From NCBI GenBank assembly GCA_002347365.1, contig DDWT01000033.1, positions 1 through 32,000 on the forward strand: a stretch of 32,000 nucleotides of DNA. Direction: 5' to 3'. The position numbers and the translations under genes are program-made. This DNA is from Actinobacteria bacterium UBA2279 (GTDB taxonomy: Bacteria > Actinomycetota > Coriobacteriia > Anaerosomatales > Anaerosomataceae). How positions within the stretch are numbered: position 1 is the stretch's first letter; each line of letters begins with the position of its first letter. Shown one piece after another: positions 153 to 7,339 of this stretch. Under the pieces are notes generated by a model. It had not been told where the DNA came from, did no database searches, and saw only the letters and a list, made by a program, of their open reading frames with translations.

Positions 153-2114
153 ATGCCAGCCCCGATGTGGGCATCCCGCGGCCACCGAAGTGAGGTGGCT
201 TGCGTGTTGCCCATAGACGGCCTGATCGTGGCCCCGCCAGGAGTTCGCCCAGAGGCTTGGGTCAGCGCGCTGTCGTCGGAGTCGGCTCCCTTCGCACTTG
301 CACCCGCCTCCAGCCGGGGGTGGTTCGGGGGGCTGGAGATCGTAGCGTGGGCACCTCGATCCATCGACAGCGGACTCGCGCTCTCAGAGGTGACCGACGG
401 ACTTCTCGACTGTCTTTACGGTCCCGGTCCGTGCCTCGGCGTAGCCCTTTTCCCGTATAGCGGCCCGCGACTATGGGCGTGCTACACGGGCGGGATCGTG
501 CGCACCGTCGAAGGGTGGCGCATCTGGGGCACGGTCGATGCGTCAGACGTGCCTGTGTTGGAATCGCAAGTCGCGGCGACGCTTCCCCGCACCGCGTCAC
601 TCGTGAAGTGCCCGCACACCGACATGACGGACCGCGGGTTCCGCACCAGGGTCCGATCGGTCATCGAGGCGATTCTCGCGGGTGACGTGTACGTCCTCAA
701 TCTGACGCGTCGCATTGCCGGGCAACCATCCGCACCACCGTCTGTCGCGTTCGCTTCGCTGCTGTCCCGATGTGGCGCTGACATGGGCGCATTCTGGGCG
801 ACGCCAGAGTTGACGATCGCTTCGGCTTCGCCGGAACGGTTCGTGCGCATCTCGGGCGACTCGGTGGAGGTATGTCCTATCAAAGGGACGCGGCCGCGTG
901 CGCGAGGCGCTGCGGATCGTGCCATGGCCGATGAGCTGCGCACATCGGAGAAGGAGCGCGCCGAGCATGTCATGATCGTCGATCTGGTCCGCAACGACCT
1001 GGGCCGGGTATGCCGCCCGGGATCGGTGACCGTCGATCCGCTGTTCGAGGTGGTGAGCACTCCCTACTGCCACCAGATGGTGTCCTCGGTGACCGGTTGC
1101 CTGCAACAGTCCGCTCCTCTGTCTGCCGTCCTCGAGTCCACCTTCCCGTGCGGATCCGTCACGGGTGCTCCGAAGATCGCAGCCATGAAGGCGATCAGCG
1201 CCCTGGAGGAATCCCCTCGCGCCGCGTACACGGGAGCCCTGGTCGTCGCGATTCCGGGGGAAATGGACTCCTCGATACTCATCCGAACCGCAGAGTACGC
1301 GGAGGGGCTGGTGCGATGGGGGACGGGCGGCGGAATCACTGTGGATTCGGATGCGGCAGAGGAGTGGCTGGAAACGGAACTGAAGGCCTCGCCGTTTCTG
1401 GGAGATGGCGTGCCTGATGTTGCATTGCGGGAGACGTGTCGCGTCGTCGATGGTGCCGTACCGCTTCTCCTACGGCATCTGGCGCGCCTCGCGGCGGGCG
1501 GCTGTGGGCCGACGACGCTCGCATCCGTCCGTGAATGCATCAAGGACGCGATCGAGTGCCAGCGCACTCCGCTGGAGCGGCTGTCCGTGACCGTCGACTC
1601 TGCTGGTCATGCATGGGCGGAGCTTTCCAGCGTGCCGTCTTCCCTTGACGTCGCTGACGGGGTGATCATCACCCCGGTCGTTTCTGAGACACCCGCCTTA
1701 CCATCGGGCGCGGCGAAGCCGATGGAGCGGGCCTTGTGGGACCGCGCGCAGCGGGAAGCTGCCCGGCTGGGCGCCGACCAGGCGCTGCTCGTCGACACGG
1801 ATGGGCGAATAATCGACGGCGCAACAGCCAGCGTCTGGGTTCGCGTTGGCACGAGGTTGCTCACTCCGCCCGCGCCGCCGGCTGTGGACGGCATCGCTCG
1901 GGGCGTTGTCTTCGATCACGCAACTCAGTGCGGCTATGAGGCCGTGGAGCGCGCTCTGACTCTCGGGGATCTCGAGATGGCCGACGAGGTCTTCATGAGC
2001 AACGCGCTGGCGGGGGTCGTCCCCGTCCGAGGTCGATCAGGACGAGCGGTCAGCGTGCTCGGCGACGTGTTCCTAGCGTTGTTTGCTGCGCGTGAAGAGG
2101 GGCCGACTGCGTGA
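153..2114 (+). CDS. pabB: Fused aminodeoxychorismate synthase component I (PabB) and aminodeoxychorismate lyase (PabC, class IV aminotransferase fold)
   Basis: 653-aa ORF. The N-terminal ~420 aa carry chorismate-binding enzyme motifs (SPERFV, PIKGTRPR, EKERAEHVMIVDLVRNDL, FPCGSVTGAPK, YTGAL, GGGIT). The C-terminal ~230 aa resemble the class IV aminotransferase/ADC lyase fold (AAKPMER Lys region, DGRIIDGATASVWV, LLTPP, VDGIARG, ADEVFMSNALAGVVPV). The start codon is uncertain because there is no clear SD. Confidence 0.8.
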   Translation: MPAPMWASRGHRSEVACVLPIDGLIVAPPGVRPEAWVSALSSESAPFALAPASSRGWFGGLEIVAWAPRSIDSGLALSEVTDGLLDCLYGPGPCLGVALFPYSGPRLWACYTGGIVRTVEGWRIWGTVDASDVPVLESQVAATLPRTASLVKCPHTDMTDRGFRTRVRSVIEAILAGDVYVLNLTRRIAGQPSAPPSVAFASLLSRCGADMGAFWATPELTIASASPERFVRISGDSVEVCPIKGTRPRARGAADRAMADELRTSEKERAEHVMIVDLVRNDLGRVCRPGSVTVDPLFEVVSTPYCHQMVSSVTGCLQQSAPLSAVLESTFPCGSVTGAPKIAAMKAISALEESPRAAYTGALVVAIPGEMDSSILIRTAEYAEGLVRWGTGGGITVDSDAAEEWLETELKASPFLGDGVPDVALRETCRVVDGAVPLLLRHLARLAAGGCGPTTLASVRECIKDAIECQRTPLERLSVTVDSAGHAWAELSSVPSSLDVADGVIITPVVSETPALPSGAAKPMERALWDRAQREAARLGADQALLVDTDGRIIDGATASVWVRVGTRLLTPPAPPAVDGIARGVVFDHATQCGYEAVERALTLGDLEMADEVFMSNALAGVVPVRGRSGRAVSVLGDVFLALFAAREEGPTA

Positions 2115-2211: not shown

Positions 2212-2583
2212 CTACGGCGTGATTCGTACCGGGCCCTTGGCGTGCTGCGGCCCCTCGTCTTTGCGTTCAAGCGCGGCCGAGCGGTAGGAGGCGGGCACCG
2301 CGCGCCCGTTGGACCAATCGACCATCTCGGCGTCACAGCGTGCGCATAAGATGATCTCGCCGATACCCACGATTGAGAGTTGCGTCCCGCGCGAGTACTG
2401 CGTGAGCGCGAGCGGGCGCTTCACCAGGTCGGTGCCGCTGCATGTGGTGCACCGCTCGGGCACATCGTCGCGCGTCCACTCGGTGCCGCAGGCGCCGCAG
2501 GTGATGCGGATGCCCTCCGGCAACTGGTTGCCGCGTAGGTCGTCGGTCTCCCCGCAGCTAGGACATGCGATCTCTCGGGCCAT
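2212..2583 (-). CDS. Small cytoplasmic double zinc-ribbon protein (4 x CxxC), function unknown
   Basis: I trimmed track ORF 2212..2808 to the ATG at 2583 (MAREIACPSCGE...), which is preceded by GAAAGGA. It has four CxxC pairs (CPSC, CGAC, CTTC, CARC) and no hydrophobic segment. G/C-rich third positions support coding. Confidence 0.6.
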   Translation of the reverse strand: MAREIACPSCGETDDLRGNQLPEGIRITCGACGTEWTRDDVPERCTTCSGTDLVKRPLALTQYSRGTQLSIVGIGEIILCARCDAEMVDWSNGRAVPASYRSAALERKDEGPQHAKGPVRITP

Positions 2584-2734
2584 AGTGCGGTCCTTTCGGG
2601 ATTCGGTCTGCTCAGTGTATCCGACCGCGCCGTCGAGCGGATTGGCTGCGCATACACCAGTCCGACCTTCGGGTATAGGCATCTCAAGATGGCGACCCGC
2701 AGAAGAGCTCTGTGGGCAGCCGAGAGGGGGGCAT

Positions 2735-3193
2735 ATGAACGCAACAGGTTGGCTCATGACCGTCGGCAGCATGATACCGGCGCTAGTCGTCATGATCGGC
2801 TGCATCATCTTCGCGGCCCGTGCGAAGTCCTGCGCTTCGTGGGGACTGGTGTTTGCGGCTGTGGGGCAGTTCGTGATGGCGGTGGCGCTGCCGCTCTACC
2901 GTCAGATAGGGATCCGGGCGTTGGTCAGGGCTGCTAGCTTCGATATCATCAACCCGCTGACGATCACTGTTGAGGCTCTATCGATCATCGCAGGACTCCT
3001 TTTCGCGGGGTTCCTGTTGGCTGTGTTGCTCGGCAAGTCACGGGCACCCAAAGCGGCAGCCGTTCCGCAACCACCTTCGGCTCCGAGCGTGCAGCCTGCG
3101 CCGTCGGCTCAGCCTTCTACGCCACCACCTGCGCCTGCAACGAGGCAAGCTTCACCGCCGCCACCACCGCCGCCGCCACCACCGGGCAGCTAG
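2735..3193 (+). CDS. Multi-pass membrane protein with a proline-rich C-terminal tail ending in about 10 consecutive Pro
   Basis: I trimmed track ORF 2309..3193 to the ATG at 2735, with SD-like GAGAGGGGG upstream. The upstream part of the track ORF is antisense to the zinc-ribbon gene. Three to four hydrophobic helices (MIPALVVMIGCIIFAA, WGLVFAAVGQFVMAVALPL, LSIIAGLLFAGFLLAVLL) are followed by a P/A/S-rich tail. Confidence 0.6.
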   Translation: MNATGWLMTVGSMIPALVVMIGCIIFAARAKSCASWGLVFAAVGQFVMAVALPLYRQIGIRALVRAASFDIINPLTITVEALSIIAGLLFAGFLLAVLLGKSRAPKAAAVPQPPSAPSVQPAPSAQPSTPPPAPATRQASPPPPPPPPPPGS

Positions 3194-3501
3194 TCGCCCG
3201 CGCTATCCGCTCTTCCTCCCCGCGGAGCCGCCGGTCGCTCCCGAGTCGTGAACGTGCCTACCGGCTGGACGACCACCGGTACGCCCTCGAGCGTGCGTGG
3301 CAGCGTGGTGGCCGGTGCGTCTGATCCCGCAACACCCACGACGATCACGGGGTTGCCATCCGTATCTTGGCCCAGGCCTACCGATCTCACTGCGGCCGAG
3401 GCCATCAGCGCTTCGGTATAGCGCGCCCGGACACTCACGGCGTGTGCGGCGGGGTCATCCGACGTCGCCGAGTTGCCCAGGACACGTCGGATCCAGCTCA
3501 C
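3190..3501 (-). CDS. Small protein homologous to the N-terminal (prodomain-like) domain of the adjacent serine protease
   Basis: 103-aa ORF with a GTG start that overlaps the protease stop as GTGA (3498..3501). A GGAGG lies 9 nt upstream. Third codon positions are mostly G/C. By eye it aligns to protease residues ~12-83 (VRSVGLGQDTDGNPVIVVGV..LPRTLEGVPVVVQPVGTF versus VVATGVGFKVSDGVRTDEVSIVCSV..VPESLNGIRTDVVATGPF). Confidence 0.55.
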   Translation of the reverse strand: MSWIRRVLGNSATSDDPAAHAVSVRARYTEALMASAAVRSVGLGQDTDGNPVIVVGVAGSDAPATTLPRTLEGVPVVVQPVGTFTTRERPAAPRGGRADSAGD

Positions 3502-4496
3502 CGGATACCGACCTCCAGCGCGGAGAAGACGTTCTCGATCTGGTTGAACAGCGTCGTGCTCTCGCTCCCCGCGAACAGCAAGCCGACGATCCTGTTCCGG
3601 TCATCGAGGACGACCGAGCCGCTGTCGCCACCTTCGCTCATGGGTCCTGCCATCAGCTGATCAGAGAAGCGCGCGACCTTGTCACCGAAGTTGACGTCGG
3701 CGGTGACGTCCACCTGCACGATCTCACCACGGGTGACTTCTGTGGTTCGCCCGCTCTTGACCACAGCTGTTCCCAGCTCCGCGCGGGCGATGCCCTCGAT
3801 GCTACCGAGCTCGAGAATCTTGTCGCTCACATAGGTGACATCAAGGGGTGCGGCCAGCGCACAGTCGACCAGGTTCTCGGCCATCGCCGTGCTGACGGCC
3901 CGCAGCCGTGCATCACTTCCCAGCAGTCTTGCGATCCAGTTCAGCATCGCGGAGGAACCCCGGGCGAATGCGCAGGTGCTCTCCTCCTCGGCCATTCGAA
4001 CCGCAACGTAGTCCGCGAGCACGCCGATCGCATCGGCGGGCAGGCGTCCCCCGTCGTAGGGTCCGGGCTGCAGGATAGGATCGCCAAGCTGGGCGCGGTT
4101 CTCGTTTGCGAGGACGTGGTTGTTGGATAGGATGAACGGCTCGCCGTCGCGATAGACGAGGCAGCCGAGGGTACCGGCGGTGATGTCCCGGTGGCCGATG
4201 CTCGCGCCGCCCGGCGCCGGCCTGTACCGCTCGGAGCGTGCCGCCAATGTCCTGAACGGCCCGGTGGCCACGACATCGGTGCGGATCCCGTTCAGGGACT
4301 CCGGCACGAGTTCGTGCGCCCTGAGCTCGGAGCGAGGAACCTTGTGGGTCACGGAGCACACGATGCTGACCTCGTCCGTACGCACGCCATCGGAGACCTT
4401 GAAGCCTACCCCCGTTGCTACGACGTTCGGGCGGGCGAGCAGCTCGTTGCGTGCTGCTCGTAGAACGGGCCGGATGTCGAGCACCCCGTCAGACAT
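3498..4496 (-). CDS. Chymotrypsin-fold (S1-like) serine protease with no signal peptide
   Basis: 332-aa ORF. Catalytic triad contexts are ILSNNHVLA (His), LVDCALA (Asp) and EGGDSGSVVL (Ser). The N-terminus (MSDGVLDIRPVLRAARNELL) is hydrophilic, with no signal peptide or TM helix. The ATG at 4496 lies 9 nt after the GNAT stop, and the SD GAGGGGGAA spans that stop. Confidence 0.85.
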   Translation of the reverse strand: MSDGVLDIRPVLRAARNELLARPNVVATGVGFKVSDGVRTDEVSIVCSVTHKVPRSELRAHELVPESLNGIRTDVVATGPFRTLAARSERYRPAPGGASIGHRDITAGTLGCLVYRDGEPFILSNNHVLANENRAQLGDPILQPGPYDGGRLPADAIGVLADYVAVRMAEEESTCAFARGSSAMLNWIARLLGSDARLRAVSTAMAENLVDCALAAPLDVTYVSDKILELGSIEGIARAELGTAVVKSGRTTEVTRGEIVQVDVTADVNFGDKVARFSDQLMAGPMSEGGDSGSVVLDDRNRIVGLLFAGSESTTLFNQIENVFSALEVGIR

Positions 4497-4505
4497 GGTT
4501 CCCCC

Positions 4506-5051
4506 TCACTCGGTCGCGCCGTAGAGCCTCTCATACTCTTCCCGAGTCATGTCCATCAGCACCAGGTCGTGGAAGTCGCCGCGCAGGAACAGGTGCTCCC
4601 TGCAGCGTCCCGTGACTGTGAATCCCAGCTTCGCGTACAGGTGCGCTGAACGTTCGTTGCCGTCGATGTAGTTGATCTGCACGGTGTGCAGCCCCAGGGT
4701 GTGAAACGCGTAGCCCAGCACCGCGATGATGGCGTCGGCTCCGTAGCCTTTGCCCTGCGCATCCAGCTCGCCGATCAGGATGCCCAGCTCGCCGTTGCGG
4801 TGCAGCATGTTCACCTTGTGCAGCCCGCAGTTGCCGATGTATCGATCGCCATCGCGCGTGCGGATCTCGAAGACGTGGTCGGCATCGGACGCGTCCACTT
4901 GCGCGTACCACGCGCGTTCCTGCTCTCGGCTCACTGGAACGTGCCCGGAAAGCATCCAGGTGTTGATTGCGGGATCGTTGACCCACGCACGGGCCGTCTC
5001 GGCGTTCTGCGCGTCGATCGGCGTGAGGTAGACCTTCTCCCCGATAAGCAT
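4506..5051 (-). CDS. GNAT family N-acetyltransferase (RimJ/RimL-like)
   Basis: I trimmed to the ATG at 5051 (MLIGEKVYLTPI...), preceded by GAGGAGGA. It has the GNAT acetyl-CoA motif (AQGKGYG) and typical RimJ/RimL-like layout (NDPAI..W, NCGLH, HRNGELGILIG, ERSAHLYAKLGF). Confidence 0.85.
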   Translation of the reverse strand: MLIGEKVYLTPIDAQNAETARAWVNDPAINTWMLSGHVPVSREQERAWYAQVDASDADHVFEIRTRDGDRYIGNCGLHKVNMLHRNGELGILIGELDAQGKGYGADAIIAVLGYAFHTLGLHTVQINYIDGNERSAHLYAKLGFTVTGRCREHLFLRGDFHDLVLMDMTREEYERLYGATE

Positions 5052-5134
5052 CGCGTCCTCCTCGGCAACGGATGCACACGAGGGTGACACAACCGACTCT
5101 CGCAGGGAAGGTTTCTCACATTCATCGCACAGTT

Positions 5135-5150
5135 GAAACGTGCACGAAAC
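5135..5150. promoter_or_regulatory. GAAAC-n6-GAAAC direct repeat, a candidate OmpR-family (GlnR-like) binding site in the glnA/GNAT divergent intergenic region
   Basis: GAAAC occurs at 5135..5139 and 5146..5150, an 11-bp period, with palindromic spacer GTGCAC. An inverted GTTTC lies at 5111..5115 and GTAAC at 5174..5178. A TACAGT -10-like hexamer (5161..5166) lies 10 nt downstream of the second repeat. The site is purely sequence-inferred. Confidence 0.3.
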
Positions 5151-5232
5151 ATTCAGGGTCTACAGTCTCCCTTGTAACACGCGACTGACGGGGTACGGGC
5201 CCCGTGCGGCGGTACTTCGAGGAGGAGTCAGT

Positions 5233-6570
5233 ATGGCACCCAAGTTCGACAAGGAGTACGTGCTCAAGACCGTTGAAGAGCGCGGCATCCGCTTCATCCG
5301 CTTCTGGTTCACCGACGTGCTTGGTCAGCTCAAATCGTTCGCCATCGCGGACACCGAGCTCGAGCTCGCGTTCGAAGAGGGCATGGGCTTCGATGGTTCG
5401 TCCATCGACGGCTTCACCCGCATCCAGGAATCCGACATGATCGCCTTCCCGGACCCCTCCACTTTCAAGATCCTGCCCTGGCGCCCCACCGAGGGCGGCG
5501 TTGCCTCGATGTTCTGCGAGATCATGAAGCCCGACGGTACGCCGTTCGAAGGCGATCCTCGCTACGCTCTCAAGCGCAACCTCAAGAAGGCTGCCGACAT
5601 GGGCTTCACGATGTACGTCGGCCCCGAACTCGAGTTCTTCTACTTCGCTGATGAGAACGGCACCGAGATTCTCGACCGGGGCGGCTACTTCGACCTGACC
5701 CCGCTCGACGTGGCCTCCGACCTCCGTCGCGAGACCGTGCTCACGCTCGAGAAGCTGGGTATCGCTGTCGAGTACTCCCACCACGAGGTTGCTCCCTCAC
5801 AGCACGAGATCGATCTCCGTTACGCCGAGGCCAGCGAGATGGCGGACATCGTCATGACCTATCGCCTCGCTGTCAAAGAGATCGCCTACAAAAGCGGCGT
5901 GTACGCCACCTTCATGCCCAAGCCCATCGCGGGCGAGAACGGTTCCGGTATGCACGTGCACCAGTCTCTGTTCAACAAGGACGGCAATGCGTTCTTCGAC
6001 GCCAACGACCCCGATGGATACAACCTGTCGGCCGTCGGCAAGAGCTACATCGCCGGTCTGCTGAAGTACGCGCCCGAGTTCTGCGCGGTCACCAACCAGT
6101 TCATCAACTCCTACAAGCGTCTCGTTCCCGGCTACGAGGCTCCCGTATACGTCAGCTGGGCGCGTCGCAACCGCTCGGCTCTCGTCCGCGTGCCGATGTA
6201 CAAGCCCGGCAAGGAGAACGCCACCCGCATCGAGCTGCGCTCGCCGGATCCCTCGGCCAACCCGTACCTGGCCTTCGCCGTCATGCTCGGCGCCGGCTTG
6301 AAGGGTATCGAGGAAGGTCTGGAGCTGCGACCCGAGGCCAGCAACAACATCTTCGACATGACCGACGCCGAGCTTGCCGCCGCCGGGATCACCACGCTCC
6401 CGGGTTCGCTGGACGAAGCCATCAAGCTCTTCGAGAATTCGGAAGTCATGAAGGAGATCCTCGGCGACCACATCCACAAGTTCTTCGTGGAGAACAAGAA
6501 GGCCGAAGTCAACGAGTTCCGTCTGGCCGTCACCGAGTGGGAGCTTGACCGCTACCTCTCGATCCTCTAG
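5233..6570 (+). CDS. glnA: Glutamine synthetase type I (GSI-alpha-like, about 445 aa)
   Basis: I trimmed to the ATG at 5233 (MAPKFDKEYVLK...), after GGAGGAG. Canonical GS motifs are present (FTDVLGQLKSF, GFDGSSI, GPELEFF, HHEVAPSQHEID, KPIAGENGSGMHVHQS, SYKRLVPGYEAP, NRSALVRVP, RIELRSPD). The position of the adenylylation Tyr reads NNIFDMT, with no Tyr. Confidence 0.95.
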   Translation: MAPKFDKEYVLKTVEERGIRFIRFWFTDVLGQLKSFAIADTELELAFEEGMGFDGSSIDGFTRIQESDMIAFPDPSTFKILPWRPTEGGVASMFCEIMKPDGTPFEGDPRYALKRNLKKAADMGFTMYVGPELEFFYFADENGTEILDRGGYFDLTPLDVASDLRRETVLTLEKLGIAVEYSHHEVAPSQHEIDLRYAEASEMADIVMTYRLAVKEIAYKSGVYATFMPKPIAGENGSGMHVHQSLFNKDGNAFFDANDPDGYNLSAVGKSYIAGLLKYAPEFCAVTNQFINSYKRLVPGYEAPVYVSWARRNRSALVRVPMYKPGKENATRIELRSPDPSANPYLAFAVMLGAGLKGIEEGLELRPEASNNIFDMTDAELAAAGITTLPGSLDEAIKLFENSEVMKEILGDHIHKFFVENKKAEVNEFRLAVTEWELDRYLSIL

Positions 6571-6604
6571 GACGAGCACCGGTAGTCGCCGGAAAGTCAC
6601 TCAC

Positions 6605-6633
6605 GGCGCCGGGCGGATCTTCCGTCCGGCGCC
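6605..6633 (+). terminator. GC-rich hairpin downstream of glnA, a probable intrinsic terminator
   Basis: GGCGCCGG (6605..6612) pairs with CCGGCGCC (6626..6633). An inner CGGA/TCCG extension surrounds a 3-nt loop. The hairpin is followed by the T-containing tract CTCGTTATT. Confidence 0.55.
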
Positions 6634-6667
6634 GACTCGTTATTGCAGACGCGGAGGCGGTAGAATC

Positions 6668-7339
6668 ATGCACATGAAAAAGGTTCTCATAGCGTCTGAC
6701 GATGCGCATACGATCGCATGGCTCCGTGAAGCCATGAGTGCTCTCGACGCCTCCGTGACTGTCTGCAGCGTCGGGGAGCTTAAGTCTCGCCTTATCGCCG
6801 AGTCCATCGATCTGCTCGTGCTGGACGGGGGCCGTTCGCCGGAAGCGGTGGTCCAGCTCGTCGAACAGGCTGCTTCGGAGGGCAATGACCTGCACCTCAT
6901 GCTCGTCATAGAGCCTGAAGCCCTCGCGGAGCTTCGGGTGCCCGTGCACATACCGGCTGACTTCCTGGTGCGTGGCGGCACCTCGGCAGAACTTGTCGCC
7001 CGCATGCGCAAGCTGCTGTGGCCGGGCGAGGAGGTCATGGCGCAGGAAGTCATACGTGTCGACGGTCTCACCCTCAACCTCGCAACGTATCAGGCATACG
7101 TAGGTCACGAGCCCATCGAGTTCACGTATCTCGAGTACGCGTTGTTCATGTTCCTGGTGACGCATCCGAACCGCGTCTACAGCCGAGAAGTGCTGCTCCG
7201 TCGCGTGTGGGGCTCAGACTACTACGGCGGGTCTCGCACCGTGGACGTTCATGTCCGGCGCATCCGCTCCAAGATCGGCGCAGAGGTGGCACGTCGGCTC
7301 GAGACCGTGCGCAACGTTGGCTACCTCTGGAAGAGTTAG
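6668..7339 (+). CDS. OmpR/PhoB-family response regulator with an atypical receiver domain (GlnR-like orphan regulator)
   Basis: The ATG at 6668 lies 10 nt after GGAGG (6653..6657). The receiver keeps DD (res 11-12) and the putative phospho-Asp in LLVLDGG. The conserved Thr/Ser and Lys positions look substituted (LMLVIEPE; FLVRGG instead of a K-P context). The C-terminal winged helix is clear (LTLNLATYQAYV, EFTYLEYALFMFLVTHPNRVYSREVLL..VWG, RTVDVHVRRIRSKIG, TVRNVGYLW). No histidine kinase gene is adjacent. Confidence 0.8.
   Translation: MHMKKVLIASDDAHTIAWLREAMSALDASVTVCSVGELKSRLIAESIDLLVLDGGRSPEAVVQLVEQAASEGNDLHLMLVIEPEALAELRVPVHIPADFLVRGGTSAELVARMRKLLWPGEEVMAQEVIRVDGLTLNLATYQAYVGHEPIEFTYLEYALFMFLVTHPNRVYSREVLLRRVWGSDYYGGSRTVDVHVRRIRSKIGAEVARRLETVRNVGYLWKS

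Follow-up and report, generated by a model that had tools for sequence, protein, structure and literature searches.

The rice protease NARROW LEAF 1 (NAL1) is important in agronomy, and its arrangement of domains has been described as unique. Solved rice NAL1 keeps its N-terminal 'ATP-binding domain' (ABD) as a permanent structural part that is not removed; ATP-Mg is contacted through R120, R122, K123, K139, V140, Q149, L151, D166 and V167, the subunits of NAL1 trimers meet at an interface between ABD and protease domain, and the hexamer is closed by an N-terminal strand (amino acids (aa) 48–53) paired with a strand of the catalytic domain (PMC12012508). A second point of reference is the pro region of alpha-lytic-type proteases, which occurs in one-domain (~76 aa, as in streptogrisin B, SGPB) or two-domain (~166 aa) forms (bioRxiv 10.1101/2020.08.30.274340); the alpha-lytic pro region works in cis or in trans, as folding catalyst and as inhibitor (PMC2289522). 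Here, we analysed a stretch of 32,000 nucleotides (nt) from Actinobacteria bacterium UBA2279 (contig DDWT01000033.1, positions 1–32,000, forward strand; hereafter the window), in which three tightly packed minus-strand genes encode, in this order, a GNAT acetyltransferase, a 332-aa serine protease and a small protein of 103 aa. The protease is a member of the NAL1 family and a bacterial relative of rice NAL1, and it shares with the small gene a module that is conserved far beyond this lineage.

Conservation of the gene pair

In a neighbourhood survey of 80 genome loci, the small gene was found beside the protease gene in 63 loci by tblastn and, with a hidden Markov model (HMM), in 75 of the 79 usable loci. 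This pairing is far more frequent than expected by chance. The paired loci belong to Coriobacteriia, Gamma- and Betaproteobacteria, Desulfobacterota, Gemmatimonadota, Armatimonadota, Bacteroidota, Planctomycetota, Firmicutes, Chloroflexota and one archaeon of the Methanomicrobiales. The stop codon of the protease gene and the start codon of the small gene share a 4-nt NTGA overlap in 45 of the 80 loci, distributed over many phyla; the translational coupling that a first-pass annotation had read from the window alone is thus a conserved trait. A third conserved neighbour was sought across the loci as well, and none was shared across phyla, all neighbour clusters representing lineage-restricted synteny. 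The conserved module is an ancient pair of protease and small gene and not a unit of three genes.

Natural fusions of the two genes exist in both possible orders, small protein–N-domain–protease (P0244, P0346) and N-domain–protease–small protein (P0245, P0375), a classic sign that both products act jointly. No separate small gene was present near the fusion in either of the two loci examined, L081 (P0245) and L082 (P0244). Other candidates were rejected. Open reading frames (ORFs) of 413–444 aa in L014, L044 and L077 that resembled fusions are artefacts which arose from alternative frames when ORFs were called from the first start in GC-rich DNA, and P0308 and probably P0324 were discarded as frameshift or deletion artefacts. 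As a side observation, two proteobacterial loci contain a second small-protein-like ORF (HMM E ~1e-11) ~3.5 kilobases downstream of the pair (L028, 8768..8962, and L037, 8768..8941, +).

Family and fold of the protease

The residues His127 (codon 4118..4116), Asp211 (3866..3864) and Ser292 (3623..3621), located in the motifs SNNHVLA, VDCALA and GGDSGS, do not vary among 58 diverse homologues that were aligned, confirming the intact catalytic triad recognised at first sight. Residues 12–71 pass the threshold of the Pfam family NAL1_N (PF25608; 31.3 bits vs a cut-off of 27). With Nal1_C (PF25819) the protease scored 14.4 bits, under the cut-off of 26.1, and with Trypsin_2 it reached an E-value of 3e-5; on sequence evidence, the catalytic domain is distantly related to that of plant NAL1. 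Sequence searches of the PDB matched rice NAL1 over the N-terminal domain and S1E proteases, namely Glu-specific protease, streptogrisin B and alpha-lytic protease, over the C-terminal barrel (phmmer: Glu-specific protease 4.9e-4, SGPB 6e-3; profile search 3.8e-7). When the AlphaFold2 model of the protease (predicted local distance difference test, pLDDT, 90) was compared with the PDB by Foldseek, 34 rice NAL1 chains came out on top (E 1e-12 to 5e-17, TM 0.61–0.70), followed by the S1E proteases SGPB, alpha-lytic protease and L5 (E ~1e-9 to 1e-10). The Pfam score and these structural matches support the kinship with Nal1-like proteases that had initially been raised as a possibility, at a sequence identity to rice NAL1 of ~18%. 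The prokaryotic family is large: homologues fall into at least 7,936 clusters at 90% identity, mostly with lengths of 330–337 aa, and the identity between proteases from Coriobacteriia, Proteobacteria, Desulfobacterota, Armatimonadota and others is ~55–60%.

The N-terminal domain fused to the protease (cis N-domain) comprises ~85 residues and corresponds to the ABD of rice NAL1 (aa 89–172), and its profile matches NAL1 residues 113–157 (E 1.7e-4). Protease residues K33, K52, D74 and V75 align with the ATP contacts R120, K139, D166 and V167 of NAL1 and are invariant in 78 of 78 cis N-domains, and the equivalents of R122 and K123 are variable in the bacterial N-domains. Residue 4 of the protease aligns to residue 93 of rice NAL1; the segment with the hexamer-closing strand is absent from the bacterial protein.

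Scanning the hydropathy of the N-terminus together with the in-frame upstream sequence revealed no hydrophobic segment and no hidden signal peptide in the protease, neither in the window nor in 77 homologues with a placeable start. The first-pass annotation had seen no signal peptide or transmembrane helix in any of the three proteins. For the protease and the small protein, the scan of the N-terminus agrees with this; for the GNAT, the support is a full-length match to cytoplasmic-type GNAT domains.

Relation of the small protein to the protease

BLASTP comparisons of the small protein with the protease gave only spurious short matches, and homology emerged with profiles only. An HMM built from small proteins alone matched the first ~70–80 residues of the protease in 79 of the 79 loci holding a protease N-terminus, which L074 lacks (E 1e-3 to 1e-9). 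Built without any Coriobacteriia, it still recognised residues 7–82 of the window protease at E 3e-7 and the window small protein at E 7e-21. Profile–profile alignment with hhalign paired residues 21–95 of the small protein with residues 8–90 of the protease (98.3% probability, E 2.5e-14, 76 columns). The resemblance to protease residues ~12–83 that had been noticed by eye is therefore real homology, and the profile comparisons identify the small protein as a free-standing paralogue of the N-terminal domain of the protease. We rejected a non-coding remnant as an explanation of the small ORF, given its conservation across phyla and the clade-excluded E-value of 7e-21.

Two types of small protein can be distinguished. 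Those encoded downstream of the protease (D-type), including that of the window, have lost both ligand loops and the equivalents of K33, K52 and D74, and with them the charged ATP-contact residues, whereas the fused cis domain keeps these in 78 of 78 cases, a division of labour between the two copies. Those encoded upstream (U-type) were seen only in loci of Chloroflexota (L056–L073); they retain the loops and the K52 equivalent and are recognised by Pfam NAL1_N. In a neighbour-joining tree, 56 D-type proteins, 8 U-type proteins and 78 cis N-domains are each monophyletic, so that the duplication giving rise to the small protein and the N-domain is old. The D-type protein has no match among Pfam or NCBIfam families. 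Searches for its homologues yielded 2 clusters with a word-indexed method, 834 with an alignment-based one and 5,930 representative clusters with an exhaustive profile search; the first of these numbers thus marks a limit of sensitivity and not an absence.

Most D-type proteins share a conserved C-terminus, [KR]-A-[QR], exactly 2–3 residues past the last strand. In the window, residues ~87–103 (3190..3240, −) form an additional C-terminal tail of 17 residues, RERPAAPRGGRADSAGD, which none of the relatives has and which resembles the domain linker of the protease itself, RYRPAPGGAS. At its 3' end, the sequence coding for this tail shares positions with the end of a convergent ORF on the plus strand (2309..3193). 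The N-terminus, MSWIRRVLGNSA (3466..3501, −), is conserved as MSW[IL]xRxxG in Coriobacteriia and resembles protease residues 185–196, LNWIARLLGSDA (3909..3944, −; BLASTP E 0.02), a match that could be due to chance. The latter segment is part of a predicted helix within the insertion between the catalytic His and Asp.

Predicted role of the small protein

The AlphaFold2 model of the small protein (mean pLDDT 69, core ~80–87) consists of a helix (residues 17–33) and three strands (38–45, 51–58 and 74–81), an order of elements equal to that in the modelled protease N-domain. Its top seven Foldseek matches in the PDB are chains of the alpha-lytic protease pro-region (2PRO/3PRO/4PRO), followed by NAL1; the pro-region chains align over 65–69 columns with E 0.02–0.08, probability 0.98–1.0 and a root-mean-square deviation of 2.2–3.5 Å. 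The pro-region likeness proposed in the first-pass annotation is thus supported weakly, with modest E-values.

On balance, we favour the interpretation, by a little more than an even chance, that the small protein is an accessory subunit which binds the catalytic domain of the protease and governs folding, assembly and active-site access of an intracellular NAL1-type protease. The protease would combine a catalytic domain of the alpha-lytic/streptogrisin kind with a permanently joined N-domain sitting at the pro-region position. Through the stop/start coupling, the small protein would be made in step with the protease and could then bind the catalytic domain as a second, trans-acting and ligand-free lobe beside the putatively nucleotide-binding cis lobe. 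Such an arrangement would parallel the two-lobed alpha-lytic pro region, which is active in cis or in trans, as well as the packing of the NAL1 ABD on a neighbouring catalytic domain that leads to trimers and a proteolytic cage. Its effect would be control over folding and assembly, and hence over access to the active site, in a self-compartmentalising intracellular protease. The comparisons show the family of the protease, the paralogy of the small protein, the conserved and coupled pairing and the fusions; the physical binding of the small protein to the protease and the effect of this binding are what we infer here.

The same structural matches could also fit a consumable foldase and inhibitor, that is, a small protein that folds the catalytic domain, plugs the active site with its C-terminus, keeps the protease latent and is later degraded. 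We consider this unlikely, because the homologous NAL1 domain is permanent and not removed (PMC12012508), sequence comparison links the small protein to none of the pro-region families, and the window protein carries its 17-residue extra tail in place of the conserved end. Moreover, fusions at either end of the protease fit a fixed subunit better than a geometry with a tail in the active site. What speaks for a foldase and inhibitor is that the best structural matches of the small protein are to the alpha-lytic pro region, which acts in trans, catalyses folding and inhibits (PMC2289522; bioRxiv 10.1101/2020.08.30.274340), and that the catalytic domain is nearest to S1E proteases after NAL1. 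The conserved C-terminus shortly after the last strand would suit a product-like plug, too.

Membrane-linked relatives

Signal peptides were called on 64 small proteins by hydropathy and motif inspection. The small protein of the window contains no hydrophobic segment (highest 11-residue Kyte-Doolittle average 0.18), and neither do its Coriobacteriia orthologues. Altogether, 43 of the 64 proteins exceeded the hydropathy threshold. Five of these (L008, L009, L011, L047, L077) are short forms whose score comes from the domain core, and ~38 possess a true N-terminus of the type K/R, hydrophobic stretch (10–14 residues), small-x-small, essentially all of them from diderms. These Sec-like N-termini belong to D-type proteins of Proteobacteria, Desulfobacterota and Gemmatimonadota that start at the overlapping NTGA. 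The Sec-like segment is followed by a conserved Met, which corresponds to the start codon of the 72-aa forms of the small protein. This internal ATG has a Shine-Dalgarno (SD)-like motif ahead of it in 21 of 35 cases, the overlapping start in 1 of 35. One possibility is that the small protein of diderms is made from two starts, as an exported and a cytoplasmic isoform.

In Chloroflexota (L056–L073), the small gene lies upstream of the protease gene, directly after a gene for a ~226-aa multi-pass membrane protein, and in P0309, P0331 and P0326 the small domain is fused to this membrane protein. According to the positive-inside rule, the membrane-fused domain of Chloroflexota would face the cytoplasm. 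Further relatives are secreted or lipoprotein-signal proteins with 2–5 tandem copies of the small domain, several of them with a CxxxxC pair, and proteases with a lipoprotein signal that lack the N-domain and carry two C-terminal copies of the small domain (both groups together: P0241, P0242, P0243, P0246, P0266, P0360, P0340, P0342). They make up a wider extracytoplasmic family of this domain that lacks annotation. The signal-like, membrane-fused and secreted tandem forms suggest that the small-domain family also works at or beyond the membrane. Since the lineage of the window lacks the hydrophobic segment, its protease and small protein should both be cytoplasmic. The view of the whole system as cytoplasmic, as expressed in the first pass, hence holds for the window and fails as a general statement, the small partner being Sec-like in Proteobacteria, Desulfobacterota and Gemmatimonadota.

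These relatives bring up a localisation or adaptor module, in which an exported, membrane-anchored or dual-start small protein would link the protease to the envelope or work outside the cytoplasm independently of it, and the signal-less form in the window would be a derived, cytoplasmic one. The ~38 Sec-like N-termini of diderms, the conserved Met with the SD-like motif at the internal ATG, the membrane protein gene beside and sometimes fused to the small gene in Chloroflexota, and the secreted tandem proteins together with the two-copy lipoprotein-signal proteases all point in this direction. Against it, the signal calls rest on hydropathy and motif inspection, the window protein and its Coriobacteriia orthologues are free of a hydrophobic segment, and the tight coupling and the fusions to a signal-less protease argue for a shared compartment in at least some lineages. 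We judge such a module to be quite improbable.

Several observations weigh against the accessory subunit that we favour. The small gene is not adjacent to the protease gene in four divergent loci (two Methanobacteriota, Desulforudis and one Firmicutes), so the small partner is not universally required. The profile of the small protein found no credible match among PDB sequences, none of the Pfam pro-region families was matched by the small protein, and the predicted likeness to pro regions is modest and speaks only weakly, given Foldseek E-values of just 0.02–0.08 and a model with a mean pLDDT of 69. Taken at face value, a signal on the small protein and none on the protease would place the partners in different compartments in diderms. 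Finally, the cage is an assumption, as the bacterial protein lacks the strand that closes the NAL1 hexamer (PMC12012508).

A more far-reaching scenario, which we regard as doubtful, would join these threads. The NAL1 ABD would descend from an alpha-lytic-type pro region that was kept as a permanent subunit, and prokaryotes would have split it into a fused ligand-binding lobe and a coupled degenerate lobe. The free lobe of diderms would originate from two starts (exported or membrane-bound and cytoplasmic) and that of Chloroflexota would be tethered to the membrane. If this were true, the module would connect a cytoplasmic cage protease to the cell envelope, and it would provide a prokaryotic mechanistic ancestor for the plant yield gene NAL1 and an undescribed class of regulated intracellular S1 proteases.

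The acetyltransferase gene

The GNAT matches Pfam Acetyltransf_3 (E 1.3e-23), and its nearest solved relatives are SpeG spermidine/diamine N-acetyltransferases (E 6e-15). Among the NCBIfam models, it stays below the cut-offs for RimJ (43 bits, cut-off 190), RimL (19.6 bits, cut-off 184), SpeG (54.5 bits, cut-off 218) and PseH. The original description as RimJ/RimL-like is not upheld by these scores; the protein is most like SpeG. Its gene adjoins the protease gene only in the window and in five close relatives from the Coriobacteriia (L001, L002, L004, L005, L007), with a distance of ~590 nt in L001 and with only ~50% identity to the window GNAT in L005 and L007. It is absent from the equally close relatives L003 and L006, where the protease has 78% identity and glnA lies immediately next to the protease gene, and from all other phyla surveyed. 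No protease, small gene or glnA was found nearby in 80 loci with distant GNAT relatives, and a metagenome scan with the GNAT returned only distant relatives of at most ~50% identity over short stretches.

The three-gene unit initially proposed is thereby confined to the window and these five relatives. A three-component system, in which proteolysis would be controlled through acetylation of the protease, the small protein or substrates by the GNAT, appears very improbable to us in view of the absence of the gene from L003, L006 and the other phyla, its distance in L001, the 80 unlinked loci, and an affiliation closest to small-molecule (polyamine) acetyltransferases, far under the RimJ/RimL cut-offs. 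In its favour stand the 9-nt gap between the GNAT and protease genes, with an SD-like motif across the stop codon, and the adjacency in five related metagenome-assembled genomes, two of which have a GNAT of only ~50% identity. The suggested control by acetylation is left without comparative support, because the GNAT is neither conserved beside the protease nor a RimJ/RimL enzyme and its distant relatives are unlinked. We regard the GNAT as a lineage-specific neighbour, possibly co-transcribed and probably functionally independent of the protease module. Its gene is positioned between glnA and the module in one sub-clade of Coriobacteriia, and one may speculate that it serves the nitrogen context of glnA and the GlnR-like regulator and not proteolysis.

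Organisation of the locus

The coordinates of the features are collected in Table 1. All sequence features named in the first pass, from the three packed minus-strand genes to the 9-nt gap, the SD motif spanning the GNAT stop and the GTGA overlap, were found in place when read directly in the sequence. The spacer between the GNAT stop and the protease ATG (4496..4494) comprises positions 4497..4505, and the G-rich SD-like sequence GAGGGGGAA straddles the GNAT stop 5' of this ATG. A GTG at 5090 could serve as the start of a longer GNAT; the alignment with relatives, however, begins at residue 1 of the ATG form.

Table 1. Positions of the genes and elements of the protease module in the window, and loci with a Sec-like small partner
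Feature	Position or loci	Strand	Remarks
GNAT acetyltransferase ORF	4506..5051	−	ATG start, 181 aa; stop TGA 4506..4508
GNAT stop TGA and 9-nt spacer with SD-like motif	4497..4508	−	direct sequence reading
NAL1-family serine protease	3498..4496	−	332 aa, without signal peptide
cis N-terminal domain of the protease, residues 1 to ~88	4233..4496	−	equals NAL1_N / rice NAL1 'ATP-binding domain'
GTGA overlap of protease stop TGA and small-gene GTG start	3498..3501	−	direct sequence reading; translational coupling
Small protein	3190..3501	−	103 aa, GTG start; D-type, paralogue of the protease N-domain with degenerate ligand site
Conserved core of the small protein, residues 17–85	3247..3453	−	family comparison
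Sec-like small partner downstream of protease	L010, L013–L018, L021–L034, L036–L050, L054, L068, L074, L079		hydropathy/motif

Divergent from the GNAT gene lies glnA (glutamine synthetase; 5140..6570, +), followed by a gene for an OmpR-type regulator with an atypical receiver domain (6545..7339, +) that is reminiscent of the actinobacterial orphan regulator GlnR. The synteny of glnA and the GlnR-like regulator is kept in L001–L007. On the other side of the module, two long ORFs overlap on opposite strands, one (2212..2808, −) for a Cys-rich, zinc-ribbon-like protein and the other (2309..3193, +) for a membrane protein that is rich in proline at its C-terminus (PPPPPPPPPPGS); both probably begin at internal starts, in which case the overlap would disappear. 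Nearer to the start of the window, an ORF of 653 aa (153..2114, +) looks, by eye, like a fusion of an aminodeoxychorismate/anthranilate synthase component I-type part with a C-terminal aminotransferase class IV (PabC-like) part. A check with PADLOC for a role in anti-phage defence gave no matches, and a scan for promoters and terminators was uninformative.

Comparison with known systems

In the full-text literature searched on NAL1 and alpha-lytic protease, we found nothing on prokaryotic relatives of NAL1 or on a connection to pro regions, and the papers found contain no description of a coupled degenerate N-domain paralogue, of its predicted pro-region-like fold, or of its secreted and membrane relatives. 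The closest described system is rice NAL1 (PDB 7Y77, 8HAS/8HAT/8HAU, 8PME–8PN2), which is the best structural match of the bacterial protease (E 5e-17, TM ~0.65). Both consist of a NAL1_N domain followed by a chymotrypsin-fold domain with the catalytic triad, both lack a signal peptide, and four ATP-contact positions are kept. Unlike the bacterial protease, rice NAL1 has an N-terminal extension (aa 1–88) and a long C-terminal region, and the NAL1 papers we found do not mention a separate gene for a copy of its N-domain.

The enzymes alpha-lytic protease and streptogrisin B (MEROPS S1E) provide the next-best match to the catalytic domain after NAL1. They share with the bacterial protease an alpha/beta domain of ~80 residues N-terminal to the catalytic part, at the position of the pro region. 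They differ in being secreted pre-pro-enzymes whose pro region is cleaved and destroyed, whereas the bacterial NAL1-type protease has no signal peptide and the second lobe of its module is a separate gene downstream of the protease.

A comparison of NAL1 with HtrA/Deg proteases was drawn by the NAL1 authors themselves (PMC12012508). In HtrA/Deg-type and other cage serine proteases, which also have the chymotrypsin fold, accessory domains build trimers or hexamers that control access to the active site. The bacterial NAL1-type protein, known from its sequence and a monomer model, differs from these in that its accessory domain is not a PDZ domain and that these systems have no paralogous subunit encoded by a gene of its own.

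Measured against these systems, the module belongs to a very large and strongly conserved prokaryotic family of NAL1-type proteases, nearly all sampled members of which come with a dedicated, coupled partner gene. The bacterial pair offers a tractable model in which to learn how assembly and activity are controlled by the NAL1 N-domain, and it suggests how secreted pro-enzymes may have evolved into regulated intracellular proteases. The NAL1 family as such is known; what is new is the coupled small partner, a family of its own beyond the present Pfam and NCBIfam models that includes secreted members with tandem repeats.

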